This document shows, piece after piece, positions 7,776 to 51,122 of a stretch of DNA of 64,000 bases; position 1 is the stretch's first letter, and each line of letters begins with the position of its first letter. Below the pieces are notes generated by a model. The model was not told the origin of the DNA. It ran no database searches and saw nothing but the letters and a program-made list of their open reading frames with translations. The position numbers and the translations under genes were made by a program. The stretch lies in the NCBI RefSeq assembly GCF_054482595.1, contig NZ_CM137008.1; one strand, 5' to 3'.

Positions 7776-7804
7776 TAAAACAGGGTGGCAGTCCTACATA
7801 CCGG

Positions 7805-8482: not shown

Positions 8483-8629
8483 GACTGACCTCTGAAATGA
8501 ACGTACGGTGTTATTGATAATGATGGAAGGTATGCAGTGACTGTTCAGGGAATGACGTAGCCGTATATTTAGTTTTCTGTTCAACATATTGTCTCCATAC
8601 CTGTCGGGACGGCTTTGGCAGGCCGGCAA

Positions 8630-9310
8630 TCACAGGTTAAAGGTGTTGATAAGTTTATGGATGAAAGAGAAATGTGGCAGGGCGGAGATAAAACGCTCTT
8701 CAGCGACCAGACTGTGGATGTGGCCTCTCCGTTCAAACCGTTCTGATGTCAGGCTGACTGATTTGATATCTGCCAGAGGAAAGACCTGCAGTTTTCCCTT
8801 CTGTAACGCGATCAGATACCAGCTACCGCTGTAATAAATGAGCCGGCAGGGCTCCAGTGACGGATACCATCGCTCAGTCATCAGAGAGATGTGGATACAC
8901 TGTCTTATTGCCAGGATGAGTTGCGAGAAACACTCGGGGAACGTTGCAGTGATATCCGGCGCCGGTAGCCAGATAAGGCAGGGAGAGGGCTCCTGGTTGT
9001 CGGTAAGACAGGTTATCAGTCGTCCGTTCCGGAGCGGAAGTATCCGTGCGATCCCGGTATTCTGTATAAAAGAAAGCATTTCAGGGATCGCACCTGGGCT
9101 GCTCTGTCGTCTGAGGCTGTACCTGCCATTTCTGTACTCTAAATCCAGGTGAACCAGACGCTGATGAAAATCGCGCTGTAAAGTACGTTCTGTAACGCCA
9201 AATTCATCTGACAGTGTTTTTAGTGACAGAGATTCTCCGGCCATCAGTCGGCTGATAATGAGTGATAAGCGAACCGCCAGGCGATCATGCCGGGAACGAT
9301 TATCAGACAT
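8630..9310 (-). CDS. WYL-domain transcriptional regulator (YfjR-like, HTH N-terminus)
   Basis: 226 aa; N-terminal HTH (LKTLSDEFGVTERTLQRDF), C-terminal region with YYSGSWYLIA, consistent with a WYL domain. Confidence 0.7.
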   Translation of the reverse strand: MSDNRSRHDRLAVRLSLIISRLMAGESLSLKTLSDEFGVTERTLQRDFHQRLVHLDLEYRNGRYSLRRQSSPGAIPEMLSFIQNTGIARILPLRNGRLITCLTDNQEPSPCLIWLPAPDITATFPECFSQLILAIRQCIHISLMTERWYPSLEPCRLIYYSGSWYLIALQKGKLQVFPLADIKSVSLTSERFERRGHIHSLVAEERFISALPHFSFIHKLINTFNL

Positions 9311-9512
9311 AGATGTGCACTCCGTAAGAAAACATCTTTTATTTCATGATGTTATTATGCATCATGATGTTGAAAGGATGTGTCGCATCCGGATAATCAG
9401 GAATAAAATGCAGCAGAAAAAATATTCTTTTAATTATCTGATTTTTAAGCATGATTTCATAAAAAGAAGAATGCTCGTTAATCCAGCGACACATCCTGTC
9501 GGCGTGAGTGTG

Positions 9513-10397
9513 TCAGAACAGACGCTCCCACAGTGTGATCAGCAGGTGGATAATGCGGTCCCGGGCTTTACGCAGAAGCTGTAACATCCAGGCCGGAAAA
9601 CTGAAACGGGCAACGGCGACGTCAAAACTTTTCCCGATGGTTTCACCAAAAGTCTGTTGTGCGTGTTTCTGGGCCTGTTCAGAGCGGTTTTCTCCCCGGA
9701 TATGTGAATACACCGCGCTGGTTGCCTGTGGTGGCAGTGCGTGGATCATCAGCGACACAAACGCCGGAAGGTTCCAGCCGACAGGTGCAGCAACGGAGAG
9801 TACCGGAAATGATGAAGGGAACAGGGTTGCCACCCGGGCTGTCACCGTCGCCAGTGAGAGCGCCTGCTGACGGGACGGGCATTTTTCTGTGGCATTCCAT
9901 TCTTCAGCAGGAAACACGCGATCGGCATGGCTGAGAACAAACAGAAAACGCGAGGGATCTGCGCCTTCATTCAGTAAAAACTGATGCATGGTAATGTCGG
10001 CGGCATACGCGCGTTCATCTGCCCGCAGGATCCAGATAATCAAATCCACTTCCGGCAGTAACTGACGGTAAAGCGCCCGGTATTCCTGATCATGTTGCGG
10101 CGTCTCTCCAATGCCGGGCAGATCGACCAGCGTCATTCTGCGTTCACCGATCTGCAGGGTAAGACGATGAGCCTGGCGGGTGCAGCCGTTCAGGGGATGT
10201 GTGGCACAGATATGGGACTGAAAAATAGCATTACACAGGCTACTTTTGCCGGTGCCGGATTTACCCATAATGCCAATCACGGGTTCGTAATGAATAACGC
10301 TGTGGAGATGTTCAAGAATTTTCTGACGAATTTCTTCAGGAAGAAACGTCAGATATGATTTCACTTGTGCGGAGAGGGAAGAATGGCTGAATGACAT
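9513..10397 (-). CDS. GTPase of YfjP/YkfA family (50S-ribosome-binding GTPase-like)
   Basis: 294 aa with P-loop GIMGKSGTGKSS and G3 DLPGIGE. Confidence 0.8.
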   Translation of the reverse strand: MSFSHSSLSAQVKSYLTFLPEEIRQKILEHLHSVIHYEPVIGIMGKSGTGKSSLCNAIFQSHICATHPLNGCTRQAHRLTLQIGERRMTLVDLPGIGETPQHDQEYRALYRQLLPEVDLIIWILRADERAYAADITMHQFLLNEGADPSRFLFVLSHADRVFPAEEWNATEKCPSRQQALSLATVTARVATLFPSSFPVLSVAAPVGWNLPAFVSLMIHALPPQATSAVYSHIRGENRSEQAQKHAQQTFGETIGKSFDVAVARFSFPAWMLQLLRKARDRIIHLLITLWERLF

Positions 10398-10581
10398 ACC
10401 GGTATCCTGTTGATTTCACTGAACCGGATCACACTAATCCGGTTTATCATTCAGGTAATATGGACGTGAAAAATGATGGAATGTCTGAATTACGGATATT
10501 ATTGTTAAAGTGTAATGGAGTATGAAGTGAGTTTTTCAGAACGGGAACTAATGACATACTGCGGTTTCAGGAGATGAGAGG

Positions 10582-23252: not shown

Positions 23253-24291
23253 ACAAATATTATTGAAAGAGATTTTTATGAAAACGAAGCTTTTTACGAT
23301 TTCTATCGGCATTGATGTAATATAGAAGAGTTATATAAATTATTCAAATCAAATTTTCTATTGAAGATTTTCATTCACAGAGTGAGAAAGATGTAAAATA
23401 AAAATACAGGCTCATATATTATTACTTAACCTTACATGGATATCCTGAAATGACATTAATTATTAAGATAATAACGTTTTCATCGGTAGTAGTAGAAATA
23501 AACAAAATTTTAATTTCAAAAACTGCTTGTTTCTCGTAGTGAGGTACTTGTCTTTACTGATTCGGATAACAGGAAAACATTTAAAATCATTCTGTTGCGC
23601 TCTTTCTGAGAGGCTGATTGCAAAATGGCATCTGAATCGATCGCAGTTGTATGACTCAGCGAGTAAGGCCAGGGAGGTGTTACCCACGAAAATATGTACG
23701 GCCCAGAACGCGCTGGAACTCTTTTGATGCTCCAGCAAGAACTTAACCGAATGCCATTGGTACGCTGCCCCACAGAAAATTCCGTCACTAATGGCGGTAG
23801 CCGACAGATTCACATGGCGTCACCGCAGTAAACCAAGATGGATCTTGATTGCGTCCTCAACAGACAACATATCTGCTTTGGACAACGAGCCAATATGTGT
23901 TTTGAGACAGGACTTATCCGCCGCCATAATCTGCTCTACAATCGCTTTGCTGCTCTGACACCTACGGTCACAACAGCCTCACTTGGATACACTCGCTCTG
24001 TGTTACTGGTCAGAGGAACGACGACTACTCGAGCGAGGTTCCTGTTTGCTGCGTCATTGCTCACGATCACTGCCGGACATGTCTTGCGGATTTCACTGTC
24101 AACAGCAGGATCAAATTCAATCCACCACGTCTCACCTGTGCCGTCACTGCTCTGTCATCTTTCTAACACTTTACTGTCTAACACATGTAATAAAAAAGTT
24201 ATTTTTCTGCAATTCGGGCATGATATTTAATCCCACGAGCATGAAACGTGTGAATTCGCTCATCAGGTACAACAAGCAAGAGAGATAAACG

Positions 24292-28512: not shown

Positions 28513-28563
28513 TCACCTCGCCAGAACCTACCAGAATATGATGTTGGTGGTAATGACTCCAAC

Positions 28564-29067
28564 TTATTGATAGTGTTTTATGTTCAGATAATGCCCGATG
28601 ACTTTGTCATGCAGCTCCACCGATTTTGAGAACGACAGCGACTTCCGTCCCAGCCGTGCCAGGTGCTGCCTCAGATTCAGGTTATGCCGCTCAATTCGCT
28701 GCGTATATCGCTTGCTGATTACGTGCAGCTTTCCCTTCAGGCGGGATTCATACAGCGGCCAGCCATCCGTCATCCATATCACCACGTCAAAGGGTGACAG
28801 CAGGCTCATAAGACGCCCCAGCGTCGCCATAGTGCGTTCACCGAATACGTGCGCAACAACCGTCTTCCGGAGACTGTCATACGCGTAAAACAGCCAGCGC
28901 TGGCGCGATTTAGCCCCGACATAGCCCCACTGTTCGTCCATTTCCGCGCAGACGATGACGTCACTGCCCGGTTGTATGCGCGAGGTTACCGACTGCGGCC
29001 TGAGTTTTTTAAGTGACGTAAAATCGTGTTGAGGCCAACGCCCATAATGCGGGCTGTTGCCCGGCAT
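28564..29067 (-). CDS. insB: IS1 InsB
   Basis: 167-aa ORF; the functional transposase would be the InsAB' frameshift fusion. Confidence 0.9.
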
Positions 29068-29261
29068 CCAACGCCATTCATGGCCATATCAATGATTTTC
29101 TGGTGCGTACCGGGTTGAGAAGCGGTGTAAGTGAACTGCAGTTGCCATGTTTTACGGCAGTGAGAGCAGAGATAGCGCTGATGTCCGGCGGTGCTTTTGC
29201 CGTTACGCACCACCCCGTCAGTAGCTGAACAGGAGGGACAGCTGATAGAAACAGAAGCCAC
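28986..29261 (-). CDS. insA: IS1 InsA
   Basis: 91 aa; [40 protein letters not shown]... Confidence 0.9.
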
Positions 29262-29396
29262 TGGAGCACCTCAAAAACACCATCATACACTAAATCAGTA
29301 AGTTGGCAGCATCACCCGCAGGACTTAGGTGCCGTAGCCTTAGTACCAAAAGGCGATACCTCTGGCGCTGACCGTAAAGGTCTTTTCAATCGTTCA

Positions 29397-29843
29397 TTGT
29401 TCAAATATGACCAGGAAAAAGATATTTATATTTGCCCGATGGGTGAAGAACTTCAGAACCGATTTACGATGGTTGAGGATGGTTTAGAACAGCAAATGTA
29501 CTTTAACAATATTGCCTGTCGCGATTGCAGTCAGCGGTCAAGGTGCACCACATCAAAACGCGATCCGAGGCGTATAAAGCGCTGGGTTCATGAAGCAGAA
29601 ATGGAAGACATGCAAGCCAGGCTTAATGCATCGCCACAAACAGCTGTCGTGCGAAAGCAAACGGTAGAGCATCCGTTCGGGACAATTAAGATGTGGATGG
29701 GAGCGACTCACTTCCTGACGCAACGGTTTAAAAACGTCAGCACAGAAATCAGTCTGCATGTACTGGCTTATAACCTGAAGAGGATGATGTCCATCTGGGG
29801 GGCCGAAGGATTGGCCATTAAGCTGCGAGAACGATGCAGCTAG
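29397..29843 (+). pseudogene. DDE transposase C-terminal fragment (IS5/IS1182-like), truncated at the IS1 junction
   Basis: ...HPFGTIKMWMGATHFLTQRFKNVSTEISLHVLAYNLKRMMSI is a typical DDE transposase C-terminus; the N-terminal half is absent. Confidence 0.5.
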
Positions 29844-30167
29844 CGGCAGTGGCCGCTTTAACTCCTAATAACTGGCCATTAGTACTCCATATCAAGCCAC
29901 AAAGTCTCGTTTTGCCTCAACATACAAATCACTGCGAATACAGCCCATATCAGGAATATCTTGCATCCCTGCTGGTGTTAGTCCTCAGATACTGAAAAAA
30001 CCGAGTTTTTACACAGCCTGGGCACGAAGCGGACCGCCTGAAGCGCAGCAAGGTCTGCTTTGAACTCACAGCGAAGAGCAGAATATACCGGGAGATATCC
30101 TCTTTCATGAGTTGGCAGCCTCTCTCGCATAATATCGAAAACACGGGAGAGGCCGTTACAGCCGCCG

Positions 30168-30932
30168 TTAGTTAGCACGGAATTCCTGGACGGTATCCCA
30201 TGCCACCTGCTGCAGCGCTTTGGCGGTTTGCTCGGTCATATCGCTGTCGGCAGGCAGTGCGCCGCCTATCGGTGACTGGTCATACAGCGTGGCGAACAGC
30301 ACGCTGGCAGCCAGATAGGTTCCCGCCAGCGAGGGGTGATTTCCATCGCTATGATACAGATTGATTTCAGGATGCGTCTTAATTGCGTTACTGAAGGCCA
30401 GCCCGACCGGCGCGACGTATCCCCCGGTTTTACTGGCTATATTCAGATAGGCTTTCTCCAGTTTTTCAGTTTGCTCGGGTTTATCCTTGCTGGCCCAGGT
30501 CATAAAATAAACCACACGCGAGCCCTCTTTGTGAGCCATATCTGCCATCTTGACGGCGGACTCCGTGAAATAGTGACGCGAATCTTTTTTAGCGGAAAAA
30601 GGCTCTGTTGAATTCCCCTGAAATATCACCACGTCCCATTTTTGCAGCGTATTCTGGAATTCAAGATTCGGAAGGTGCCAGCCTAAACGTCCAGAAGAAA
30701 TGGTGATTCCCCGGAACATATAGTCTTTAGCGCCATTCGGTAACAGCGAACGGCTGAGATCGCGCAGTCGGGTATTTATATTATTGTTATAATGTGTATA
30801 TGAATTTCCGTAGAGCGCAATGGATTTATTGACTCCGCTCAGTTTATCCTGCGGTTTGGCTGCAATAATCGTATCGGCCTGCGCGTCGACCATCAGCGCC
30901 AGTCCTGCCAGCAACAACATGATTTTTTTCAT
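30168..30932 (-). CDS. secreted SGNH/GDSL-type hydrolase (esterase-like)
   Basis: Start set at ATG 30932 (MKKIMLLLAGLALMVDAQA signal); family assignment tentative. Confidence 0.5.
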   Translation of the reverse strand: MKKIMLLLAGLALMVDAQADTIIAAKPQDKLSGVNKSIALYGNSYTHYNNNINTRLRDLSRSLLPNGAKDYMFRGITISSGRLGWHLPNLEFQNTLQKWDVVIFQGNSTEPFSAKKDSRHYFTESAVKMADMAHKEGSRVVYFMTWASKDKPEQTEKLEKAYLNIASKTGGYVAPVGLAFSNAIKTHPEINLYHSDGNHPSLAGTYLAASVLFATLYDQSPIGGALPADSDMTEQTAKALQQVAWDTVQEFRAN

Positions 30933-30942
30933 TATTCTTTCC

Positions 30943-31992
30943 TCAGAAGTCGTAGCGCAACCCGACGATAATGGCGTCATCGTTGACCTTCTCGTTTTTA
31001 CTGGCCAGCGTATTAAGGTAAGTTGCTGATAAATACACATTCTTAGCTAAGGTTAGCTGCGATTCAATTCGCCAGCCCTCGTGTTCGTACACATCCTCGT
31101 CGGCTTCATCCAGGATGCTGTACCCGCCAAGCACTTTGAATTCTTTGGTGAATTGATAGGAGGCAACGGAATCGAAACTCGTATAGTCATTGTCAGATTT
31201 ATTGTCTCTTTCTATGGAGACCTTACCCGCCGTTACGGCTAATGACAAATCGCTATAATCGAACTGCAGCCCGCCCATTACCTGGCTGTGCTTCTTGCGG
31301 CCGTCGGTGGTTTTTACGCCGTCCTGACGGTTATATTGACTGACGGCAATCGCCGGTGTGATTTTTACGTCGCCGAATTTAATCATCTTGCGATAACTGG
31401 CCATCATGCCGTTATCAAGTGCATCGTTGTCGCTATTGCCATTTCCAAAAACGTAAGCCAGTTGCACCTGATGCCCGCTAAAATCACCGTTCCATTGCAG
31501 GGTGCCATCCTGACGGTTAAATTGGTAAGAATCGTCAATAGTGGTAATACCGTAGTTATATACGTTTGGCGTAAAGTTTTTATATTTGTCCGTCATGCGC
31601 ATGACCTGATATAACGGGTTTTTAGTACGACCGGCAATCAGCTCGCCATATTTAGCATGAGAAAGCCCCAGATAGGCGTAACGGGCGTCGAGATCTTTAT
31701 CTTTGGTTTTATTATCATCTTTTTCAGTACGAACCTGCCACTCCAGGCGACCGACAAGTTTAGTATCTTCCAGTAAAGGGAGGTCGCGGGTTAAATAAAT
31801 CCCTAAGCGCCCCCCTATTTGGCTACGGGAGTCATCATTTGCGAATGATGCTTCTCCATTCGCTAACTGCCACTCAATACGCCCGTAAATATCCAGCGTG
31901 GTGGCTTTATCCTCATAAACGCTAATCGCCAGCGCTGACGTGCTAGCCCCAGATAAGGCAATGAATAATAATGTTTTGGCTTTAATGCTCAT
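30943..31992 (-). CDS. outer-membrane beta-barrel porin
   Basis: 349 aa, signal peptide (MSIKAKTLLFIALSGASTSALA), alternating hydrophobic pattern, C-terminal ...GLRYDF with terminal Phe. Confidence 0.6.
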   Translation of the reverse strand: MSIKAKTLLFIALSGASTSALAISVYEDKATTLDIYGRIEWQLANGEASFANDDSRSQIGGRLGIYLTRDLPLLEDTKLVGRLEWQVRTEKDDNKTKDKDLDARYAYLGLSHAKYGELIAGRTKNPLYQVMRMTDKYKNFTPNVYNYGITTIDDSYQFNRQDGTLQWNGDFSGHQVQLAYVFGNGNSDNDALDNGMMASYRKMIKFGDVKITPAIAVSQYNRQDGVKTTDGRKKHSQVMGGLQFDYSDLSLAVTAGKVSIERDNKSDNDYTSFDSVASYQFTKEFKVLGGYSILDEADEDVYEHEGWRIESQLTLAKNVYLSATYLNTLASKNEKVNDDAIIVGLRYDF

Positions 31993-32410
31993 GCTGTTCT
32001 TCCCCTTTAAAAAATAAATATGTTCGCCCTTGATGCAGGATTAAATAGTTGTTATCAGGCGCCATTAATTTTTAGTTACATTAATGCAGAGCGAATACGG
32101 GAATTGCGTTTTCTCATAATAAAATGTGATTTTACGCACATAAAATAGGGCTTAATGGCTGGCGTTGTTATTTGTGAAGATTTCATTGAAAATAAATAAT
32201 AGCGATTTAATTGATTCTCTCCGAACTGAGATATAAATGGCGAATTTATGTTAATCTCATCACGTTTTTCATATTGTGATCCCCGGAACATATGGGAAAT
32301 GCATATTCCCCTGTTTACGCAGTGAGAATTGCTCCAGAATACTCGTTACGCAGTTAAATTTGATTTGAATGATATGCTGTTATCAGCGACGTACGTCACA
32401 GGAGTTTATA

Positions 32411-33781
32411 ATGCCAGGCAGTCAAAGTTCGGTATTTGATTCAGAATTGTATTCCTCTCTCTTCACGCAGCCGGAGATGAAATCAATCTGGTCCGATGAT
32501 AATCTTCTTCGCTGTTGGCTGACCTTTGAAGCAACCATCGCGCATGTGCAGACTGAGTTAGGTATTATTCCCCCTGAAGCCGCCGCGGAAATTTCCGCCG
32601 CCTGCCAGACGCTGAAAATAGACTGGCCGCGCCTCGCCAGGGAAACGCGTTCCGTCGGTATGGCGATTAAGCCTCTGGTTGATCAAATTGCCGATGCGGG
32701 TTCCCCTTTGGTCAAAAAATACCTTCACTGGGGCTGCACGACTCAGGATCTGCTGGATACCGCCCTGGCCATGCGCATGAAGCAAACCCTGCAATTACTG
32801 CGCAGACAGTTGGTGCAGTTGGGCGAAACGTTGAAAGCTATGGCGCTTGAGCACCGACATACGGTGATGGTCGCCAGAACGAATTCCGTCGATGCTTCCG
32901 CCACGACGTGGGGGCTACACGTCAGCAGCTATCTGTCCGAGCTAACCCGCCACCTTCAGCGCCTGGATCGCCTCTACCCGGCAGCGACTACCGGCCTGTT
33001 TGGTGGCGCGGTCGGCAACCTGGCCTCCGTCGGCAGCCAGGGAATGGCGATACGTAAGCAATTAATGGGCGCGTTAGGGTTGTCATGCCCTGTCGGTATG
33101 AGCAATGCCAGTCAGGATCATGTAGTCGAAGTGGTGCAGTTTTTTGCCCTGGTGCATGGCACGCTGTGTCGCATGGCCAACGACGTTGAAACGCAGGGCC
33201 GCACGTCCGTGGGCGAGTTGCGTGAAGGCGAAGGCGGTGGAGGATCCAGTACGATGCCACACAAGACGAATCCCCGCGCGAGCAATATGATCCAGACGCT
33301 TTCCCGCATGGGCTGGAACTATGCCTCTGGTGCAACCAGCCTTCTCGATCAGTGTGACGTGCGTGCTGCCTCCGCCCGCGTACTCAACTGGACGCTGGTA
33401 CCGGAGTCGGCGCTGGCCTTGTCGGCCAGCCTTGAACGTGCTGTCCGGTTAATTACGCATCTGGTGGTGGACAAAGAGAAGATGCGCAGCAACTTCGCCG
33501 CTTCAAAGAACTTCATTATGTCGGAATCCGTCACCATGGTATTGGCTGAGAAAATCGGGCGTGGTGCCGCTTACGATCTGATGAAAGCGTTATTAAAAGA
33601 CGCAGACGGCTCTAAAGACCTGTTGCAGTGCATGCTGGAAAATCAGACCGTTATTGACGCGCTAACTGAGTCGGAGATTGTTGCTGCTTGCGATCCATTG
33701 TCTTATCTGGGCTGCAATGACGCGCTGATCGAAGAAACCGTCATAGCCTTCGACGATTACATTCATGTCCGGACGGCGTAG
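32411..33781 (+). CDS. fumarate-lyase-superfamily enzyme (adenylosuccinate-lyase / 3-carboxymuconate-cycloisomerase-like)
   Basis: ATG 32411 preceded by AGGAG; signature GSSTMPHKTNP (GSSxMPxKxN); substrate not inferable from sequence. Confidence 0.75.
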   Translation: MPGSQSSVFDSELYSSLFTQPEMKSIWSDDNLLRCWLTFEATIAHVQTELGIIPPEAAAEISAACQTLKIDWPRLARETRSVGMAIKPLVDQIADAGSPLVKKYLHWGCTTQDLLDTALAMRMKQTLQLLRRQLVQLGETLKAMALEHRHTVMVARTNSVDASATTWGLHVSSYLSELTRHLQRLDRLYPAATTGLFGGAVGNLASVGSQGMAIRKQLMGALGLSCPVGMSNASQDHVVEVVQFFALVHGTLCRMANDVETQGRTSVGELREGEGGGGSSTMPHKTNPRASNMIQTLSRMGWNYASGATSLLDQCDVRAASARVLNWTLVPESALALSASLERAVRLITHLVVDKEKMRSNFAASKNFIMSESVTMVLAEKIGRGAAYDLMKALLKDADGSKDLLQCMLENQTVIDALTESEIVAACDPLSYLGCNDALIEETVIAFDDYIHVRTA

Positions 33782-33834
33782 TCCAGAGCCATTCGCTTCC
33801 TGCCGAAAGCAGGTGTGCCGACAGGAAGCGGTCA

Positions 33835-34722
33835 TTATCCAGGAAGAGGTGAAAAGGTTTCAAAAAAGACAAACAGTTCCTCCAGTTGCTCGAAATTGCC
33901 CTCGCCTTCGCCTTTTTCATAGGCCAGATGCAACACCAGCTCAATAAAAAAGAAACCTACGATGCGGCTTTTGAATACGGATTGCGTATCGCTCGGCAAC
34001 ACAAACTGCAGATTACAAAATTTGCCGTACGGGTTGGACTCCGAGTTAGTAATCAGCACTACCGTCGCGCCTTTTTTACAACACCATTCGGTAACGCGAA
34101 TCACTACCCGGTTAAAACGGTAGTAGGAGAAAACGATCAGCACGTCCTGATCCGTAACGGTCAGCAATGACTTCGGCAACTCCCCAACGTCCATAGAAAG
34201 CAATGTAACCCGATCGCGGAAATATTTAATCAGCGTAGTAAAATGTTTCGCCATCGCATAGGAAGACGCGGGACCGATTACGTATATATGTCGGTTGGTA
34301 TTCAAAATAATGTCGATAAATTTATCCAGACTGTCAATATTGATATTATCTTTAAAATTCTCGAACAAGGTCGTAACATTCTTATTAAATTCGGAAACAA
34401 TTTGTTCCGTGGTAATCTTTTCTTTTACCTGAATGCGTGATGCCAGCTCAAACGGCGGCACCATTTTTTGCAGTGTCAGCGTATTTTCCAATGCCCGACG
34501 GAAGTCAGCGTAGCCGATAAATCCCAGCTTATTTAAAAAACGCCCAACCGTTGCTTTACTCACCATTGCATTGCGGGCAATGTCGATGATGCCGTGAAAA
34601 GGGAGTTCATTAAAATGTTCACGCATATACGCGTCAAGACGGTGTTCTGACTCGGTTAGTGAACATAACAGCACGGTTTTTGAAATATAGTCCTCTAATG
34701 TTAAAGGGGTATTTTTTTTCAT
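33835..34722 (-). CDS. RpiR/MurR-family transcriptional regulator (HTH + SIS domain)
   Basis: 295 aa; N-terminal HTH (...IIDIARNAMVSKATVGRFLNKLGFIGY...), C-terminal SIS-like region; divergent from the transporter gene. Confidence 0.7.
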   Translation of the reverse strand: MKKNTPLTLEDYISKTVLLCSLTESEHRLDAYMREHFNELPFHGIIDIARNAMVSKATVGRFLNKLGFIGYADFRRALENTLTLQKMVPPFELASRIQVKEKITTEQIVSEFNKNVTTLFENFKDNINIDSLDKFIDIILNTNRHIYVIGPASSYAMAKHFTTLIKYFRDRVTLLSMDVGELPKSLLTVTDQDVLIVFSYYRFNRVVIRVTEWCCKKGATVVLITNSESNPYGKFCNLQFVLPSDTQSVFKSRIVGFFFIELVLHLAYEKGEGEGNFEQLEELFVFFETFSPLPG

Positions 34723-35005
34723 AATTGTCGTCCTTACACACTACGGATAAAAAGATACTATATTCAGTATAGAGAATAACCTTATCACATAATAATGCTA
34801 TGCTATAGCCTTCCGTAAAGTGATTGACATATTTCCTGTTATGAGATCATGCGCACAAACCCCAGCGGGAAAAGCAATTTCTCATAGCTCACATTACCCT
34901 GATTCGATCATGATTTCATTACGGCATCAGTCTCTGAATTTATAGAGAATTAGGCGATCTAAATATAACTAGCCGTCATATATAGGAAAACAAAAGGACG
35001 ATCTC

Positions 35006-36382
35006 ATGACCGCATTTGTAATCGCAATCGTGATCACTATCATTGCAGCATGGTTAATCATCAAGAACTTCCAACCTCAGACGGTATTGCTGCTGGCTGG
35101 TTTGTCTTTACTGACCATTACTGCTGTCTTCTATCCTGATAATAGCATTCTCTACGGTAAGGCTAAATCAACCGGTTCCACCTGGCTGGATATCTTTACG
35201 TTTGCCAAAAATTCACTCTCCACACAGATCGCCGGTATCGGTTTGATCATCATGGCCGCGGGCGGCTTTGCCAGTTATATGGATCATATCAAAGCCTCCA
35301 ATGCAATGGTGAACGTCTGCATTCGTCCCCTGCAAATCATCAAGGCGCCCTACGTGATCCTGGCTGTGGGGTATATTTGCGCACAGTTGCTGCACGTCGC
35401 GATTTCCAGCGCCGCCGGGCTGGCGATGATGTTATTAGTGACGTTCTTCCCGGTGTTGGTACGACTGGGTGTCAGTAAAGCAGCGGCGGCGGCGATGATC
35501 GGTCTGTGCGCCTTTATGGACTTAGGCCCGGCGGTCGGCACGGCCAACCTGGCGGCTAAACATGCCGGTATGGAAGCCGCCGTTTACTTTGCGCACTATC
35601 AGATGCCGGTGGCTGTTGCCGTTATGTTGGTAGTGTCGGTGCTGATTTTCTTTACCGCCAAATATTATGACAAGAAAGATGGTCACGTGATGACCAGCCA
35701 GGTGGCGGACGACACGACGCCTCAGAGTGAGGATAGCGAAAAAGTGCCGGGGCTGTATGCTTTCCTGCCTGTATTCCCTGTGATTCTGGTGCTGGTCTTT
35801 AGCCCGTTGGTCATCTCCACCATTAAAATCGACGTAGTTACCGCCATGATTGTCGGCACAATACTGGCGTTCGTCTGCGAACTGTTCGTTAAACGCGACT
35901 TCCGTGCCTGCTGTAAAGGTGTACAGGTATTTTTTAAAGGAATGGGCGGGATGTTTACCAGCGTGGTTTCATTGTTAGTGTGTGCGGATATCTACGCGCA
36001 GGGAATGCAAAAAATCGGCGCGGTGGATTACCTGTTGGAGATGGTGCAGAACGCGGGCTTTGGCTTTGCCAGCATGACCGTGGTGATGACGCTGCTGGTA
36101 GGTATAACCGCTGTACTGACGGGCTCCGGGGTTGCGGCATTTTTCTCTTTCTCCGGCATGGCGCCTGCTATCGCCACTAAATTTGGCGAAAGCGCTGTAC
36201 ATATGATTCTGCCGATGCAACTGATGGCTGGAATGGGACGTTCCATTTCTCCCGTCGCAGGGATCATCATTGCGGTCAGCAAAGCCGGTGAATGTTCACC
36301 GTTCATGATAGTGCGCAGGACCTTAATTCCGGCGCTCGGCGGCATGCTTACCATGTTGCTGGCTAACTACCTGTTGTTCTGA
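35006..36382 (+). CDS. DcuC-family (C4-dicarboxylate-type) membrane transporter
   Basis: 458-aa polytopic membrane protein; size and composition resemble DcuC as I recall it. Confidence 0.55.
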   Translation: MTAFVIAIVITIIAAWLIIKNFQPQTVLLLAGLSLLTITAVFYPDNSILYGKAKSTGSTWLDIFTFAKNSLSTQIAGIGLIIMAAGGFASYMDHIKASNAMVNVCIRPLQIIKAPYVILAVGYICAQLLHVAISSAAGLAMMLLVTFFPVLVRLGVSKAAAAAMIGLCAFMDLGPAVGTANLAAKHAGMEAAVYFAHYQMPVAVAVMLVVSVLIFFTAKYYDKKDGHVMTSQVADDTTPQSEDSEKVPGLYAFLPVFPVILVLVFSPLVISTIKIDVVTAMIVGTILAFVCELFVKRDFRACCKGVQVFFKGMGGMFTSVVSLLVCADIYAQGMQKIGAVDYLLEMVQNAGFGFASMTVVMTLLVGITAVLTGSGVAAFFSFSGMAPAIATKFGESAVHMILPMQLMAGMGRSISPVAGIIIAVSKAGECSPFMIVRRTLIPALGGMLTMLLANYLLF

Positions 36383-36469
36383 AGGACGTGTCGTCAGTGC
36401 GATGCCATTAAATCCAGAGAGCCAGGCGAGAGTACTTTGTTGTCAACATCAGTTAGCCGGACGTAAGTT

Positions 36470-38164
36470 ATGACCCACGAAATCACAGACAATTTACTTT
36501 ATATCCCTTATGCAGGCCCGGTATTACTGGAATCCCCGCTGCTGAACAAAGGCAGCGGGTTTACTGAAACAGAACGCGCAATGTTTAACCTGAGCGGGCT
36601 GTTGCCCGCAGCGGTTGAGACGATTGAAGAGCAGTCGCTGCGGGCCTATCAGCAATTCCTGGATATCAAGTCGGATATTGCCCGTCATATCTTTCTGCGC
36701 AATATTCAGGATACCAACGAGACGCTGTTTTATCACCTTGTGAGCAAGCACCTGGTGGAAATGATGCCGATTATTTATACCCCGGTAGTCGGACATGCGT
36801 GTGAACACTTTTCCGACATCTATCGCCGCGCCAGGGGATTATTCATCGCCTGGCCGGACCGGCATATGATCGACGAAATATTGCATAACGCCACAAAGCA
36901 GAATATTTCGGTGATTGTCGTCACTGACGGGGAGCGGATCCTCGGCCTGGGCGATCAGGGAATTGGCGGCATGGGGATTCCTATCGGCAAACTTTCGTTG
37001 TACACCGCCTGCGGTGGTATTAAGCCGTCGCATACGCTGCCAATCTTATTGGATGCGGGAACGAACAATTCCCAATTGCTCAATGACCCTTTGTATATGG
37101 GTTGGCGTCATCCGCGCATCACCGGCGACGCATATTTTGAGTTCGTCGAGATGTTTATCCGCGCGGTTAAGCGCCGTTGGCCGGACGTGCTATTACAGTT
37201 CGAAGATTTTGCCCAACAGACGGCGATGCCGCTGCTGACCCGCTATCGTGATGAGATCTGCTGTTTTAATGATGATATCCAGGGTACCGCAGCGGTGACT
37301 TTGGGATGCCTGATGGCGGCAAGCCAGGCCTCCCAACGTCGGTTATGTGACCAAACGGTAGTCTTCCTGGGCGCGGGATCGGCCGGATGTGGCATTGCCG
37401 AACATATCGTCACGCAGATGGTGGCTGAAGGGTTGACCGATGAGCAGGCCCGTTCACGCATTTTCATGGTGGATCGCTTTGGCCTGCTTACGGACGATCA
37501 AACTAATCAGGCTCCTTTCCAGTCACCGCTGGCGCAGCCGCGGTCGCGTTTGGCGAGCTGGGGCGGTCAGCAGGAGGCGTACTCGCTGATGGACGTGGTA
37601 AGCCAGGCTAAACCGTCCGTTCTGATTGGCGTCAGCGGGCAGCCAGGACTATTCAGCGAAGCGGTGATCGGGGAAATGTATCGTCACTGTTCGCAACCGA
37701 TAGTTATGCCACTTTCCAACCCAACCTCGCGCGCAGAGGCACGGCCGGAAGATATTCTGCGCTGGACCGATGGTAACGCGTTAATCGCCACCGGCAGCCC
37801 GTTCGAGCCGGTAAGCCACGGGGGAAAATTGTATCCTGTTGCACAATGCAATAATGTTTATGTCTTCCCTGGTGTGGGTCTCGGCGTGATGGTTAGCCGT
37901 GCCACACGCGTCACGGATAACATGATGATGGCGGCCAGCCGCACGCTGGCAAGTTGTTCGCCGCTGGTGCGCGACGGGCGTGGTCCGCTGTTGCCCAGTA
38001 TTAATGACATCCGGCAGGTGACGCAGGCCATCGCCCTTGATGTTGCTCTGGCTGCTCAACGTGATGGCGTCGCCGTAAATATCCCGCAGGAAACCTTGCA
38101 ACATAACATTTCGAGCGGATTCTGGGAGCCGCAGTATCTTCAGTACAAGCGCACCTCATTCTGA
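36470..38164 (+). CDS. NAD-dependent malic enzyme (MaeA/SfcA paralog)
   Basis: 564 aa; ...[22 protein letters not shown]...[34 protein letters not shown]...[13 protein letters not shown]... tracks E. coli MaeA closely but is clearly diverged. Confidence 0.85.
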
Positions 38165-38280
38165 TAAGCAGTCTGTAGCGGGAAGATCTTGATACCGTTG
38201 GTAACGGCGGTATCAATTCCGTAAAAGCCGCATGGCCCGTATCTGTTCCGAGTGTATCCGGTGTTATGGTAGCGCAATCG

Positions 38281-38700
38281 TCACCGGGCATAGCGACCCG
38301 GCAGATTCATACACAGTTTCGTCTCCTCGGCATAGAAATGCGGCAGGTTCCGCTGATAGTCAGACGGCGTTACACCACAAAGCATTTTGAAATCTTTGCT
38401 GAAATGGGCCTGATCATGGAAATCGAGGTCACAAGCAAGGGTGCGCAAATCGACCACGCCGTGATGGATGCGCCGGCACGCTTCATTTACTCTGAGAATA
38501 CGGACAAACGATTTCCAGGAAACGCCAATCCTCTCCTGGCAGAAGCGGTTAATGTGCCGGGCGCTGTATGACGTCATCTCGGACAAGCTATTAAGACGAA
38601 TGCCCCCGTTCAGCGGGGAAGCATGCGTCAGTACCTGACGCAGCAGCGGTTTTTCCTCCAACACAGCGAAGGTGGAAGTTGAGAATAACTCCTTAAGCAA
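38281..38700 (-). pseudogene. AraC-family regulator, HTH domain only (sensor domain cut off by IS1 copy B)
   Basis: 139-aa ORF with an AraC-type HTH; an in-frame stop lies between it and the IS1 end at 38821. Confidence 0.55.
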
Positions 38701-38820
38701 AGGTAGCCCGCAGAAGTATACTGAACGCTATAAAGAATGTAGTGGAGATGCTGGTTGTGAACAGCAGATCCGTAAGGATATGGCGAAAGAATCGGCGGAA
38801 AATGTTCTTAAGTTGAAGTC

Positions 38821-39588
38821 GGTGATGCTGCCAACTTACTGATTTAGTGTATGATGGTGTTTTTGAGGTGCTCCAGTGGCTTCTGTTTCTATCAGCTGTC
38901 CCTCCTGTTCAGCTACTGACGGGGTGGTGCGTAACGGCAAAAGCACCGCCGGACATCAGCGCTATCTCTGCTCTCACTGCCGTAAAACATGGCAACTGCA
39001 GTTCACTTACACCGCTTCTCAACCCGGTACGCACCAGAAAATCATTGATATGGCCATGAATGGCGTTGGATGCCGGGCAACAGCCCGCATTATGGGCGTT
39101 GGCCTCAACACGATTTTACGTCACTTAAAAAACTCAGGCCGCAGTCGGTAACCTCGCGCATACAACCGGGCAGTGACGTCATCGTCTGCGCGGAAATGGA
39201 CGAACAGTGGGGCTATGTCGGGGCTAAATCGCGCCAGCGCTGGCTGTTTTACGCGTATGACAGGCTCCGGAAGACGGTTGTTGCGCACGTATTCGGTGAA
39301 CGCACTATGGCGACGCTGGGGCGTCTTATGAGGCTGCTGTCACCCTTTGACGTGGTGATATGGATGACGGATGGCTGGCCGCTGTATGAATCCCGCCTGA
39401 AGGGAAAGCTGCACGTAATCAGCAAGCGATATACGCAGCGAATTGAGCGGCATAACCTGAATCTGAGGCAGCACCTGGCACGGCTGGGACGGAAGTCGCT
39501 GTCGTTCTCAAAATCGGTGGAGCTGCATGACAAAGTCATCGGGCATTATCTGAACATAAAACACTATCAATAAGTTGGAGTCATTACC
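38821..39588 (+). mobile_element. IS1 (complete, 768 bp), copy B, inverted relative to copy A
   Basis: Starts GGTGATGCTGCCAACTTACTGAT at 38821 and ends ...ATCAATAAGTTGGAGTCATTACC at 39588; insA 38876-39151, insB 39070-39573. InsB differs from copy A at two residues (S65R, S88R), so the copies are not identical. Confidence 0.95.
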
Positions 39589-39594
39589 GACACA

Positions 39595-42500
39595 TCAGAA
39601 ACGATATTCCACACTCAACATGGCAGATGTATTATGGTATCCATGTTCTCCAAGTTGAATGCCTGCATCAGCCCGGAATGCTACTTCTGGTGTTATCATT
39701 CCCACAACACCACCATTTATTTCTCCGATATCACGCGCACCATCCTGGTATATACTTACACCATTCATACTGGTGCCGAAAACACGACTATTGTGCAACC
39801 AGTGTGCCTCCACAAATGGTCTGAACGGAACCGCATACCGCGTATTTTTACCGTTTTTGCTGGTAAGCCATGTTCTTGCTCCCAGGCGGGTGAGAATATT
39901 TCCGTTACCGGTATTTTCAATACTGGTTCCGTTACTTTCATGATATTTGTCTGATTTTACATTCATCCGGACAACCTGAAGCTGCGGCTGAACATACCAT
40001 TCATGACTTCCCTTGTAATTGTCGGTAAACTCTCCAGCCTTCCATGAATATCCTGCTTCCAGAGATACCGTAAACCCTTTTGACTTCCATGACTCAGCAG
40101 GCAGCCGTTCTCCATTTATATGATTATCAAACCAGCTGTATTGCAGCCAGCTATCAAGATAAGAACCATTGTGTGTTTCATCATTGGCATACCATGTTGC
40201 ATAAAGACCCGCTGTGTATCCATTCATTCTTCCTTCCGAATGGTATCCGGTGCTCAGGGCATTCGTACTGTTATTATTATGACCATAGCCAGCCATCATA
40301 CCTGTATGCCAGCGATCGGTACCATTCAGGCTCCACTGAGCTATATCTCCCCCTATTAACACAACGTAGCTATTCCCCCGGGTTCTCAGCTGACTACTGT
40401 TGTCACGCCAGCGATTATGTTTTCCTTTATTATACATCCAGATACCTGCTTCATTTTCTTCTCCTGTCATGTGGCTGATATACAACTCCTGTCCCTGTCG
40501 TTCATACAGATTCGTTACAAACAGATTATTTGCAGCAGCAATACTGGCAACATAGCTACCTGCCTCAGGACGCAAATTATTATCATGGCTTTCCGGTACA
40601 GCTTCAGGTTGTGGTACAGGAATGTCTTTTCTGCTAATCAGATACCAGTTAGTGCTGTTAATCCCCTGACCACGTTTCAGTATGTAATCATAAGCTCCGG
40701 CTGTAATACGTTCCGTCTGAATGAATTCAGCATTATCAGCATTGCCACTGACGTGAATCACTTCAATCCCATTAAGTGTCTCTGCACCAGTACCACCGGC
40801 CTGAGTAACAGCGACACGGGTACGGCCACTGGCATTACCTTTAATCACCAGACGATCTGTTTTCGAATTGTCACCACCTGTTTCTGTCTGGAGGAGAATA
40901 AGTCCATTTCTGCCAGTGTAATTCCCTCCGACAGTCAGTATATTACCCGGCATATATGTAGTGAGATCGACTATACCACTATTGCTCAGATTTCCTGCAA
41001 CGCCCCCAAACCCGGAGAGTTTGCCCTGCTCTTCAACAATGACCTGGTTACTGCCGAGCATCACCGGTGAATCTGCGTTCCCCAGTATCACTGTCCCCTG
41101 AATAATATCTGTCATCCCGGTCCATTTTGCGTTATCGCTAATGTTCAGTGCACCTGCTCCCGTCTTGCGAACATTACCATAACCACTGATATTGTTGGTA
41201 AGCTGCCATGCTGATGTACTGTTCAGAGTTAATGTGCCATAGTTATCAACAAAGGCTGTCCCCAGATTATCAGCCGTGGATACAGCCAAATGAGCCCCCT
41301 TATTCACGGTAAAAACACCGGAAAAATTACGATTATTACCCGTTATATCAAGCATTCCCCCATTTATGTTCAGAGAACCATCCCCTGCAATAGTACCTGC
41401 AGATTCTCCTCCATTATTCAGTATCAGACTTCCGCCATGAATGTTCAGCACAGAGCCTGCAGCCGTCAGTAGTTTGCTTATTGTCTGAGGATACCCATTC
41501 ATATCCAGTTCTGCGCCACGGGATAAATATAAATACTCAGTCCGACCAAGAGCATCAGGTGCAGCAAGAATTAATACGCCAGATTTAACCTCTGTATTTC
41601 CTGTATAATTGTTTGTTGCAGAAAGTATAAGAGTACCATTACCTGATTTTGTCAGACTTTTGCCGTCCCAGCCATCATATAATAAAGGTGAAAGATTATC
41701 GGAAAGAGAAACGCCTATGTTCAGAGTGGCATCTTTTTCTATATTAAAGGTTCCATATCCCATCCCTTTTGTATTATTCCATCTCAGCATGGATATCAGT
41801 TTGTTATCGTCGTCATTTAAAGACGTATAAACATAACTTTCAGCACCTTCTGTCAGTAATACATTGTATTGTACAATGTGACTATTATCAGCGATCGAGA
41901 TACCTGTGTCTGACGACAATAATGTGTAATAGTCCTGAGTCCAGTTCTTAATTGATGTGTCTATATTAAGCCATGAATCACTTTTTAATGTAATAGTATT
42001 TGCGTGAACATTAGCATTTCCTACAGACAGGTTCATAGATGCGTCTTCATCAATACTTATATTTCCGTTAAAAATGGAGTTCTTGCCTGACAGATAAACA
42101 GATGAGCCATTCCCAATCATTAGCCCACCATTAATTGCTGTTGCGTTATTGATGTTTTTAATAATTAATTCATTTGTACCATTAACAGGTATACTAGCTA
42201 GTTTAATATCACCATTAATCACAGAATCTGAATAAATATCTAATGAATTATACCCGCCAGAAAAAATTATTGATGTATTATAAGCATCTTTTTGGCTATT
42301 ATATAATCCTGAAAGATTACCATGATTATTAATATGGATATCTTCTCCATAAACAGAGCAACCACCGTCGGGGCCATATCCCCCCTGAACAATACCGTTA
42401 TTATTCAAAGTGATTTGATTTCCAGAAATAGCATCTCCCCCTTGTTTTATTCCATATCCTCCAGATATCATGTTGTCGTTAGTAATGAAAAGATTACTAC

Positions 42501-43092
42501 CATTAATACCATCACCACCGTTTACGCCATTACCGCCCAATATTCCTCCGGAATTATGCACTGTAATATTGCTACCGGTTACACCGGAACCACCTGTCCC
42601 ACCTACATCATCACCTCCGTATATACTTCTGTAATTATCAACTATAATATCATCCCCGCTTAACCCTGCACCTCCGCTACTTCCTGAGCCACCAAGACCA
42701 TTACCCCCATATACATTTCTGTAATTGTTTATAGATATTTTGTTGCCACTAACAGCAATTCCACCATTATATCCATCTCCTCCCCAAACACTACCATTAT
42801 TATTTAGCGTAAAGTTTTCACCGTAGACACCTGCACCACCGATTGATGTATTGCTTGTTCCTCCTTTGATGTTAATACTGCTTTCAACAGATAGTATATT
42901 TTGAGTATAACTTGTTTTATACGGCACGCTGATATTAAGCGCCGCGTTTCCATCAACACCTGTAATACTCCTGGTTATACTTTCAGGTATACCATTACCA
43001 TTCAGTTGTATTGTTTGCGCACCAGAAAAATGAGACTGCACAGAATAAAGTATACTGACCAGAAATTGTAAAATTCGTATATTCTTATTCAT
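39595..43092 (-). CDS. autotransporter adhesin (type Va), AIDA/pertactin-like Gly-rich passenger
   Basis: 1165 aa; signal peptide; repeated GG-x-G and NxS/T passenger repeats; C-terminal beta-barrel ending ...SAMLSVEYRF; AT-rich gene. Confidence 0.8.
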   Translation of the reverse strand: MNKNIRILQFLVSILYSVQSHFSGAQTIQLNGNGIPESITRSITGVDGNAALNISVPYKTSYTQNILSVESSINIKGGTSNTSIGGAGVYGENFTLNNNGSVWGGDGYNGGIAVSGNKISINNYRNVYGGNGLGGSGSSGGAGLSGDDIIVDNYRSIYGGDDVGGTGGSGVTGSNITVHNSGGILGGNGVNGGDGINGSNLFITNDNMISGGYGIKQGGDAISGNQITLNNNGIVQGGYGPDGGCSVYGEDIHINNHGNLSGLYNSQKDAYNTSIIFSGGYNSLDIYSDSVINGDIKLASIPVNGTNELIIKNINNATAINGGLMIGNGSSVYLSGKNSIFNGNISIDEDASMNLSVGNANVHANTITLKSDSWLNIDTSIKNWTQDYYTLLSSDTGISIADNSHIVQYNVLLTEGAESYVYTSLNDDDNKLISMLRWNNTKGMGYGTFNIEKDATLNIGVSLSDNLSPLLYDGWDGKSLTKSGNGTLILSATNNYTGNTEVKSGVLILAAPDALGRTEYLYLSRGAELDMNGYPQTISKLLTAAGSVLNIHGGSLILNNGGESAGTIAGDGSLNINGGMLDITGNNRNFSGVFTVNKGAHLAVSTADNLGTAFVDNYGTLTLNSTSAWQLTNNISGYGNVRKTGAGALNISDNAKWTGMTDIIQGTVILGNADSPVMLGSNQVIVEEQGKLSGFGGVAGNLSNSGIVDLTTYMPGNILTVGGNYTGRNGLILLQTETGGDNSKTDRLVIKGNASGRTRVAVTQAGGTGAETLNGIEVIHVSGNADNAEFIQTERITAGAYDYILKRGQGINSTNWYLISRKDIPVPQPEAVPESHDNNLRPEAGSYVASIAAANNLFVTNLYERQGQELYISHMTGEENEAGIWMYNKGKHNRWRDNSSQLRTRGNSYVVLIGGDIAQWSLNGTDRWHTGMMAGYGHNNNSTNALSTGYHSEGRMNGYTAGLYATWYANDETHNGSYLDSWLQYSWFDNHINGERLPAESWKSKGFTVSLEAGYSWKAGEFTDNYKGSHEWYVQPQLQVVRMNVKSDKYHESNGTSIENTGNGNILTRLGARTWLTSKNGKNTRYAVPFRPFVEAHWLHNSRVFGTSMNGVSIYQDGARDIGEINGGVVGMITPEVAFRADAGIQLGEHGYHNTSAMLSVEYRF

Positions 43093-43676
43093 ACTGTTTT
43101 TTCTTTAGTGATGCATTTTTTATCAACCATACAAGCACATTATTTCATTGATACTAATCACATCAGGATGAATGTTTTTTCTCAATAGAAATAAGTGTCT
43201 TTATTCCTTACCAATTTATTCTGGTTATTCCTCTTATCCAGACGTCTCGTGATACTCCCTGTATTTATTATAGAGTATATATATGTACTGCGTTTAAATC
43301 ATGAAGACGACAACCTGTTTTACATAAATTATTCCTAAGTATTTTTCCAGAGAAGACCTAGGTATAATGATGTGCACTGTCTGGTTTTCTTACAACTGAC
43401 TTAGCGATCTGCATATCCGTGATAACGCCTGAATAAATAGGACGAGAGAACTCTTAACCAAATAATCTAACACTTTTAATCGACAGGAATTAAAAACCCG
43501 GGGAGGTTAAAAAAACACAAAAAAATGGATGTTTATTCAACTCTGGTTACGTACCATGAGGACTGCATCCACAATGCACCGGCAATTAAATGGCTTTCAT
43601 TGATTGATTTTTTATATCTGTGATGATTTTTTGCTCCATTCCTCAAAAAATGGACGCAACTTCCCCTCTGCGGCTC

Positions 43677-50597: not shown

Positions 50598-51122
50598 ATG
50601 AAACGTAAACTTATTGCCTTTGTGATTCTGGCTACATCATCCTGTGGATATGCAGCCACCAAAGATGTAACAATGAATCTTGTTGATAGTGACGGAAAAG
50701 AGCGAAATATTGGTAAAATAACCATCCAGAAGACACCCTACGGGCTGCTGTTCACCCCTGATCTTCACTCCTTACCCGCCGGCATTCATGGTTTTCATGT
50801 ACATGAAAACGCAAGTTGTGCTCCTGCCCTGAAAGATGGAAAAACTGTCGCTGCTTTATCTGCAGGTGGTCACTTTGACCCGGAAAAAACAGGGAAGCAT
50901 CTCGGTCCATGGTCTCCTGATGGCCACCTAGGTGATCTCCCTGCGCTTTATGTCACTCATGACGGAAAAGCAACCTACCCGGTGCTTGCGCCAAGACTAT
51001 CTGAATTAAAGGAGCTCGATGGCCGTTCGCTAATGCTCCACGCAGGAGGTGATAATCATGATGACCATCCTGAACCTCTAGGTGGCGGTGGTGCAAGAAT
51101 TGCCTGTGGTATCATCCCATAA
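50598..51122 (+). CDS. sodC: periplasmic Cu,Zn superoxide dismutase
   Basis: 174 aa with signal peptide; [10 protein letters not shown]...[17 protein letters not shown]...[11 protein letters not shown]...[12 protein letters not shown] matches the SodC metal-ligand pattern; diverged from chromosomal E. coli SodC as I recall it. Confidence 0.9.

Follow-up and report, generated by a model that had tools for sequence, protein, structure and literature searches.

What are two autotransporter genes doing in one accessory region of an Escherichia coli chromosome, and do they belong together? The locus lies in a stretch of 64,000 nucleotides of contig NZ_CM137008.1 (assembly GCF_054482595.1), hereafter the window, to which E. 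coli strain W2-5 is a near-identical match. An earlier description, called here the sequence-only reading, had recorded two open reading frames (ORFs), one of 1165 aa (39595-43092) and one of 895 aa (56187-58874), as distinct autotransporters; both lie on the minus strand, their coordinates and lengths were exact and the observation as a whole is largely correct. Gene 1 is, by sequence identity, the already known adhesin AatA. Gene 2, here named AT2, is an uncharacterised and unstudied autotransporter, and its normal operon context, behind a polysaccharide lyase of family PL8, is a testable functional lead. In the explanation that we favour, with a probability of roughly 75% for the whole of it, the two are mutually unrelated, classical (type Va) autotransporters in a mosaic leuX island, and the window copy of AT2 is an intact but orphaned relic of a system that is broken here.

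Linkage of AT2 to a polysaccharide lyase operon

AT2 is present in 62 of 5426 complete E. coli genomes, and its cluster also holds Salmonella enterica subsp. diarizonae and houtenae. The gene order of the intact operon, as seen in Santai, is a DeoR regulator, phosphotransferase system (PTS) components IIB-IIC-IID-IIA of the mannose/Aga type, GH88, DUF2264, a 335-aa protein, PL8, AT2 and a small lipoprotein-like ORF; AT2 starts 9 bp past the PL8 stop codon. PL8 also lies directly upstream of AT2 orthologues with 95% (Salmonella diarizonae), 68% (1132 aa), 67%, 58% and 47% identity. For the 44% orthologue, which belongs to such a PL8 cluster too, a second autotransporter and a lipoprotein-like small ORF intervene. 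The gap between PL8 and the autotransporter is 9-15 bp, and the linkage is strict in E. coli, in Salmonella subsp. diarizonae and houtenae and in related loci assembled from sequencing runs. Junction and PL8 searches among the AT2-positive E. coli genomes placed AT2 behind PL8 in 48 of 62 and behind a ProQ/FinO-family gene in the other 14. PL8 was found at one place per genome, and the 14 genomes with the ProQ junction contain nothing beyond a short PL8 remnant. In one locus from a sequencing run, two autotransporters of 589 aa and 1164 aa come after PL8, separated by a 48-aa ORF (L015:4695-6464, 7001-10495 and 6557-6703, respectively), and the autotransporter slot of the operon can therefore be duplicated.

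The lyase resembles chondroitin AC lyase and hyaluronate lyases most, and xanthan lyases nearly as much. Its only export signal is a Sec signal peptide, and these clusters showed no secretion system dedicated to it. The 335-aa protein (Santai, L013:19403-20407), encoded immediately before PL8 wherever the operon is intact, matches no Pfam family; it has a signal peptide, weak matches to outer-membrane beta-barrels and a C-terminal Phe (...QYNF), and is possibly an oligosaccharide channel. Several of the AT2-orthologue loci also contain RpiB/LacAB-like and SDR genes, which we take to be of the same family types as the streptococcal DhuI and DhuD enzymes. The glycosaminoglycan (GAG) cluster of streptococci contains a PL8 hyaluronate lyase, UGL/GH88, DhuI, DhuD and a mannose-family PTS EIIABCD (PMC6837340). 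PL8, GH88 and a mannose/Aga-type PTS IIA-D are common to this cluster and the ancestral AT2 operon. Beyond the streptococcal set the enterobacterial operon has the autotransporter, the 335-aa putative outer-membrane protein, often DUF2264, and the 47-aa lipoprotein-like ORF, components that suit a two-membrane envelope. In gene content the ancestral AT2 operon resembles an enterobacterial version of the streptococcal cluster for glycosaminoglycans (hyaluronan/chondroitin). A GAG-type cluster with AT2 is present in 48 other E. coli genomes and six orthologous loci and absent from this window, where 42 bp of PL8 remain.

The segment that comprises AT2 and the small ORF (55949-58925) shares 98.4% DNA identity with Salmonella enterica subsp. 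diarizonae (L008/L009). This is far above the usual divergence between E. coli and Salmonella and argues for recent inter-genus transfer of the whole lyase operon.

The deletion junction

Homology of the window to the intact operon ends at 58925. What is left of PL8 is its last 13 codons and stop (RGSSYSFELSKNK*; 58884-58925, minus strand), identical to the 3' end of the Santai gene. From 58915 upward the sequence is that of a ProQ/FinO-family gene, which is intact beside dndB in strains such as 55989. A three-way alignment of the window, Santai and 55989 shows that the two homologies overlap by 11 bp (CTACTGCCGCG; 58915-58925), a signature of microhomology-mediated illegitimate recombination. 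Recombination at this microhomology removed all upstream genes of the operon except the 13 lyase codons, and placed the AT2-lipoprotein pair behind the ProQ/FinO-family gene next to dndB. The junction has created a 76-aa fusion ORF (58862-59092, minus strand), in which the first 58 codons of the ProQ/FinO-family gene run into the PL8 tail out of frame, and which overlaps the AT2 start codon by 13 nt. Together with a 57-aa ORF that is intact (59089-59262, minus strand) and that precedes the ProQ/FinO-family gene in other strains, the fusion ORF heads a co-directional string leading into AT2.

Between the window copy of AT2 and the Santai copy there are no nucleotide differences. Since the orphan is identical to a copy that still lies in its operon, the deletion must be recent, and for the same reason the intact frame says nothing about continued selection.

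We infer that any expression of AT2 in this strain would rely on read-through from a foreign promoter in the dndB-proximal intergenic region. It is also possible, although we incline against it, that AT2 and the small ORF are silent remnants heading to decay, without a phenotype. The native promoter, the DeoR regulator and all partner genes are deleted in the window, and the deletion is recent. Moreover, a promoter scan found no site in the 51 bp kept upstream of AT2, and overall promoter-like sites were no more frequent than in shuffled sequence. Set against this, AT2 has retained its ribosome-binding site (RBS) and lies behind two co-directional ORFs with no terminator-like site between, the second of which overlaps its start codon, so that read-through is plausible.

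Another damaged copy of the ProQ/FinO-family gene is found at about 23299-23490 (from L001 4467-4658), beside IS3. It is about 89% identical to the copy at 58917-59109 that is truncated at the PL8 junction, and the presence of two damaged copies points to a joining of two related island backbones.

Architecture of AT2 and its small neighbour

The 895-aa frame of AT2 is uninterrupted, with no internal stops. From the Pfam barrel, sequence autocorrelation and an AlphaFold2 model it can be divided into a putative signal peptide (about residues 1-33), a beta-helix passenger (about 34-560), a helical linker and a 12-strand barrel. Read by eye, the N-terminus (...SSLLLAVFSLSFISSSVNA, then A) has the features of a Sec signal peptide, with a basic n-region, a hydrophobic core and small residues at -3 and -1 (VNA/A, the slash marking the cleavage site); residues F22, S23, L24, V31 and A33 are invariant in 13 homologues. 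The barrel (residues 619-871; 56262-57020, minus strand) scores 106.6 bits against a cutoff of 26 and was the only domain recognised: searches of Pfam and NCBIfam gave no PATR, AC_1 (PF18883) or pertactin (PF03212) match at E<=0.01. The description of gene 2 as a PATR-repeat protein consequently did not hold, as neither PF12951 nor TIGR02601 matches it. Pfam also gave no lyase or hydrolase match, and a phmmer comparison with PDB sequences gave no match of any kind at E<=0.01.

The model, built from 13 homologues, has a mean pLDDT of 78. It predicts a right-handed beta-helix over about residues 44-566, with about 25 rungs, followed by 12 long barrel strands; pLDDT exceeds 90 over most of residues 130-500, and a linker helix at 578-592 is predicted with low confidence. 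The sequence itself has a sharp 21-residue period with a consensus near LN.NA..AI.GG.Q.F...S. in its autocorrelation. Foldseek matched the barrel to those of BrkA, AIDA-I, EspP, Hbp and NalP (TM 0.65-0.78 on target), and the closest folds to the passenger are those of the adhesins Vag8, TibA and Ag43. Sequence identity of AT2 to the Vag8, TibA and Ag43 passengers and to the Hbp, AIDA-I, NalP and BrkA barrels is only 8-18%, and whereas autotransporters of the AIDA-I type carry an AC_1/pertactin-type autochaperone, AT2 matches neither domain. By its modelled 12-strand barrel and beta-helical passenger AT2 is a classical type Va autotransporter. The passenger is acidic (pI 4.7; 25 K+R versus 39 D+E) and rich in Asn, Gly, Ser and Thr, and two invariant cysteines, C39 and C45, lie at its N-terminal cap. 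Passengers of this type are rare, with 75 representative clusters of 1.84 billion at E<=1e-3, of which three are close.

Assignment of AT2 to a named E. coli autotransporter was considered and rejected: NCBIfam offers only a generic barrel model and no equivalog, source names are generic and there is no PDB match. Identity with AatB is unlikely in view of the generic annotations.

A chimeric autotransporter of 1061 aa occurs in E. coli and Salmonella (L016:7001-10186, L017:1989-5174; P0042-P0048). Its passenger is 56% identical to AT2 residues 30-528, and it is joined to an AIDA/MisL-type autochaperone and barrel in a plasmid-like context of ParA, ParG, resolvase and IS1. An autochaperone domain is present in the chimeric relatives P0042 and P0051. 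The chimera represents shuffling of a passenger module between two translocator classes.

The small lipoprotein-like ORF and the shared terminator that had been noticed after gene 2 are both present. The ORF (47 aa; 56008-56151, minus strand) starts 35 nt past the AT2 stop and has its own RBS, AAGGAG. Its product begins MKYIMLFLMVIMLNAC and continues, beyond the putative lipoprotein cleavage site, with ESAQNFKRPELSQQNCDTCNIDDADSPIFDD; the lipobox, read by eye, is L-N-A-C, in which N at -2 is atypical versus the [LVI][ASTVI][GAS]C pattern. The Salmonella diarizonae copy is identical, and a diverged counterpart of 46 aa, in which the lipobox is a canonical LVGC and the core SQQNCD.C...SP.F.D is retained, lies beside the 67%-identical AT2 orthologue; this conservation argues that the ORF is a real gene. 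An intrinsic-terminator-like hairpin with an 8-pair stem, in which 7 pairs are G-C, and a TTTTT run after it (55922-55940, minus strand) lies 67 nt beyond the small ORF. It closes the AT2-lipoprotein pair and is the sole terminator-like site after it.

A possible function for AT2

The gene 2 half of the proposal that both genes are adhesin or biofilm candidates was plausible as a generic label, although the PL8 operon context had been missed. We infer from that context that the acidic, roughly 25-rung passenger would be the surface-exposed component of a polysaccharide-utilisation system. It would bind a polysaccharide or a polysaccharide-rich matrix and keep cell and substrate together, and the Sec-signal PL8 and the outer-membrane protein would then process and admit the fragments. 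A surface binding role is favoured for three reasons. AT2 has stayed linked to PL8 even among deeply diverged orthologues; none of the other operon products is obviously exposed at the surface, PL8 having a Sec signal only; and, by analogy, the beta-helix autotransporter UpaB binds GAGs. UpaB, from uropathogenic E. coli, is a precedent for a beta-helix autotransporter that binds glycosaminoglycans, and it has a lyase-like site. It has no detectable sequence similarity to AT2. In UpaB strand extensions and loops shape a groove, whereas AT2 is a plain regular helix, and upaB lies outside any lyase operon, whereas AT2 lay ancestrally inside one. Stated in full, the proposal is that the AT2 family might be the dedicated surface part of an enterobacterial GAG-utilisation operon, capturing or first-cutting hyaluronan or chondroitin together with the periplasmic PL8, the 335-aa channel and the small lipoprotein, with the window copy a freshly orphaned relic. 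We offer this proposal tentatively.

Several observations weigh against this proposal. Xanthan lyases match PL8 nearly as well as the GAG lyases do, and the substrate is thus not fixed. The passenger is acidic and lacks obvious groove-forming insertions, unlike a typical polyanion-binding surface. Passengers of the AT2 type occur on an AIDA-type barrel in an IS1/plasmid context without a lyase and so are separable from the operon. The lipoprotein-like ORF is absent from the loci read beside the 58% and 47% orthologues, and in the window its lipobox has N at -2. Signal peptides were judged by eye only. Finally, a literature search for a link between autotransporters and PL8 or GAG loci in Enterobacteria returned only UpaB and the streptococcal papers.

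Some of the same evidence could be taken to mean that AT2 is a generic adhesin or biofilm autotransporter, that its adjacency to PL8 is hitch-hiking without functional coupling, and that the orphan copy is as functional as any other. The nearest passenger folds are indeed those of the adhesins Vag8, TibA and Ag43, the same passenger type is found on a different barrel with no lyase nearby, and the orphan pair is intact in 14 genomes from varied hosts. This last point loses its force because the orphan is nucleotide-identical to the in-operon copy, so that intactness is uninformative on selection. Moreover, protein identity falls from 95% to 47% and the neighbouring genes are exchanged, yet the two genes stay adjacent, 9-15 bp apart; hitch-hiking without co-transcription and selection is hard to sustain in the face of such persistence. 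We therefore consider a purely generic role unlikely.

A more specific possibility is an enzymatic passenger: a beta-helix lyase or depolymerase at the cell surface would make the initial extracellular cuts, the oligosaccharides then passing through the 335-aa protein to periplasmic PL8. PL6 and related lyases have a right-handed beta-helix fold, UpaB offers a lyase-like site, and the autotransporter is the sole obvious surface product in clusters that show no dedicated export machinery for PL8 beyond its Sec signal. In the structure search, however, autotransporter adhesins outscored lyases. The passenger has an unusually uniform 21-aa repeat without long loops or a groove, and the Pfam search returned no lyase or hydrolase. 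An enzymatic passenger is accordingly improbable, and a binding role for AT2 remains the one that we favour.

Gene 1 is the adhesin AatA

The uninterrupted 1165-aa frame of gene 1 (39595-43092, minus strand), with no internal stops, is 97% identical without gaps (1134 of 1165 residues) to the characterised AatA of avian pathogenic E. coli (APEC) O1, APECO1_O1CoBM96, which adjoins the eit operon on pAPEC-O1-ColBM. Homology to that plasmid at the DNA level is 98.2% over 39593-43346, from 2 bp past the stop to 254 bp upstream. The published aatA ORF has a length of 3,498 bp (PMC2944236), and that of the window is the same. The 31 substitutions relative to the APEC O1 copy are concentrated in the barrel, as are differences from APEC O1 in the BL21 and IMT5155 copies (Dai et al., PMC2944236). 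The upstream region (43093-43346, minus strand) is 98% common to pAPEC-O1-ColBM and contains an exactly conserved FNR site (ATGTTTTTTCTCAA; 43172-43185, minus strand) 79 bp upstream of aatA. A site at -79 was predicted by Barbieri et al., and the enclosing promoter fragment was shifted by FNR in an electrophoretic mobility shift assay (PMC5481319). Published experiments on reference AatA alleles show roles in adhesion to chicken fibroblasts (DF-1), cell aggregation and virulence, and aatA is activated by FNR (PMC2944236, PMC5481319, PMC9289746). For gene 1 the adhesin label was therefore right, and already established for AatA.

The features ascribed to gene 1 as a Gly-rich, AIDA/pertactin-like autotransporter were borne out. 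A signal peptide was predicted for AatA with SignalP by Dai et al. (PMC2944236); read by eye, the window's N-terminus, a putative signal peptide of about residues 1-25 (MNKNIR-ILQFLVSILYSV-QSHFSGA/Q), has a basic n-region, a hydrophobic core and small residues at -3 and -1. Residues 26-300 are 22.5% Gly, with a Gly-rich region of 25-aa period at about 60-300. The domains follow in the order Gly-rich N-terminus, IcsA-type VID and central beta-helix, PATR, AC_1/pertactin autochaperone and AIDA-type barrel. The C-terminal 12-strand barrel (residues 884-1143; 39664-40443, minus strand) scores 121 bits with PF03797 (cutoff 26) and the autochaperone 84.6 bits with PF18883. Among PDB sequences the best correspondences are the AIDA-I barrel 4mee (1.4e-73), IcsA 5ke1 (2.5e-56) and the IcsA autochaperone 3ml3 (2.8e-24), in keeping with a published phylogeny that assigns AatA to 'Group 8' alongside IcsA, MisL, ShdA and EhaA (PMC9289746); YfaL is a further Group 8 autotransporter. 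Residues 376-549 match the passenger of IcsA/VirG from Shigella flexneri, including the VID, and residues 664-824 match its autochaperone. IcsA shares only this part of the passenger, whereas the Gly-rich N-terminus is AatA's own, and the actin-based motility of IcsA has no known or implied counterpart in AatA. 

In the type Va pathway a protein is exported by Sec, its barrel is inserted with the help of the BAM complex and its passenger is displayed with the help of an autochaperone. AatA would follow this route, with Sec export, insertion of the AIDA-type barrel into the outer membrane and an IcsA-like beta-helix passenger on the surface; AT2 would take the same pathway.

DNA resembling aatA (at least 80% query coverage) was found in 664 of 5426 complete E. 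coli genomes and on 221 plasmids. The window copy and those of APEC O1, IMT5155, BL21 and REL606 have in common the 3,498-bp ORF, the 254-bp upstream region with its FNR site and insertion sequences (IS) on both sides. The gene moves as a module of about 3.75 kb, the ORF and 254 bp promoter region with the FNR site, bounded by insertion sequences. The window copy is chromosomal, in the leuX island, whereas the reference APEC O1 copy is on pAPEC-O1-ColBM. Where in pAPEC-O1 the stop codon is followed by some 100 bp of different sequence and the end of another IS, an IS1 lies 6 bp beyond it here, and the window flank falls outside the three variants typed by PCR, fecI, ykgN and eitD (PMC2944236).

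Repeats and length of the passengers

Repeat-rich passengers that vary in length between strains had been proposed for both genes. In its strongest form this would make them two independent adhesin candidates, the second PATR-rich, with strain-variable repeats as a source of phase or size variation. In their amino acid sequences both passengers do repeat, with a period of 25 aa in AatA and of 21 aa in AT2, and distant AT2 orthologues do vary in length, from 759 to 1164 aa. Within species, lengths are constant: all full-length AatA cluster members listed have 1165 aa, and the alignment of the window's AatA with that of APEC O1 is free of gaps; AT2 measures 895 aa in E. coli, and in Salmonella either 895 or 897 aa. 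AT2 contains no PATR, the sole unit in either gene being at AatA residues 480-508 (41569-41655, minus strand; PF12951 36.6 bits, TIGR02601). At the DNA level, Tandem Repeats Finder reported only two trivial rows, of 30 and 20 bp, over 39000-59500, and no tandem repeats in aatA or AT2, so that variation in repeat number through slippage-prone repeats is not supported. This explanation is thus very improbable. As judged from the sequences compared, the passengers change length on evolutionary timescales and not through slippage at the strain level. For each gene, identical sequences are found in numerous independently assembled complete genomes, and this speaks against frameshifts introduced by assembly.

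The island and its insertion sequences

The placement of both genes in an accessory region was correct. In W2-5 the counterpart of the region is flanked by tRNA-Leu (leuX)/yjgR and by nanC/fim, which identifies it as a leuX genomic island; a tRNA search detected none within the window itself, and attachment at leuX is deduced from W2-5. Strains such as EC11 and SM107 are 100% identical to the window over the regions tested. Both genes are AT-rich, at 41.4% GC for aatA and 42.3% for AT2 compared with 47.6% for the window. The island is crowded with remnants of IS1, IS3, IS66, IS91, IS110, IS256 and ISL3, and its cargo includes a dnd/dpt phosphorothioation system, sodC and a dicarboxylate-metabolism module.

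An IS1 element, copy B (768 bp; 38821-39588, plus strand), had been described as inserted 6 bp past the aatA stop. The distance is correct (39589-39594), whereas a simple insertion is disfavoured. No target-site duplication is visible at the flanks of copy B. A second IS1 (28549-29316), 99.7% identical and in inverted orientation, brackets with it a module of about 9.5 kb, and in W2-5 most of the intervening segment (30738-38820) has the opposite orientation; positions 29317-30737 did not align to W2-5 in pieces larger than 1.5 kb. The segment is an IS1-mediated inversion polymorphism, and the missing duplication together with the inversion makes IS1-mediated rearrangement likelier than a simple insertion. 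The aatA ORF was undamaged by the rearrangement and lost its native 3' flank. A malic enzyme gene (36470-38164) lies in the bracketed module, and the W2-5 version carries dcuC, a MurR/RpiR regulator, an aspartase-family gene and a porin.

The AT2 junction immediately adjoins dndB (59725-60810), followed by dndC (60807-62441) and then dndD, the dnd genes occupying 59725-64000 of the window. In W2-5 they continue with dndE, dptF, dptG, dptH and then the island integrase adjoining tRNA-Leu, and at the opposite end of that island is an annotated 'phosphorothioated DNA-binding restriction endonuclease'. A sodC-like gene for a periplasmic superoxide dismutase (50598-51122) lies midway between the two autotransporters, flanked by IS66/IS3 remnants.

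Implications

AatA is a known, widely distributed, IS-mobilised and APEC-associated adhesin, to which the window adds one further chromosomal context. For genome annotation, AT2 in this strain is a decoupled remnant and should not be counted as a stand-alone virulence adhesin. The linkage of AT2 to PL8 points to a way in which certain Enterobacteria might use host glycosaminoglycans as food or as attachment sites, and it would give an unstudied autotransporter family a testable function. If the proposal is true, a type V secreted protein would serve in nutrient acquisition, much as the surface glycan-binding proteins of Bacteroidetes utilisation loci do.

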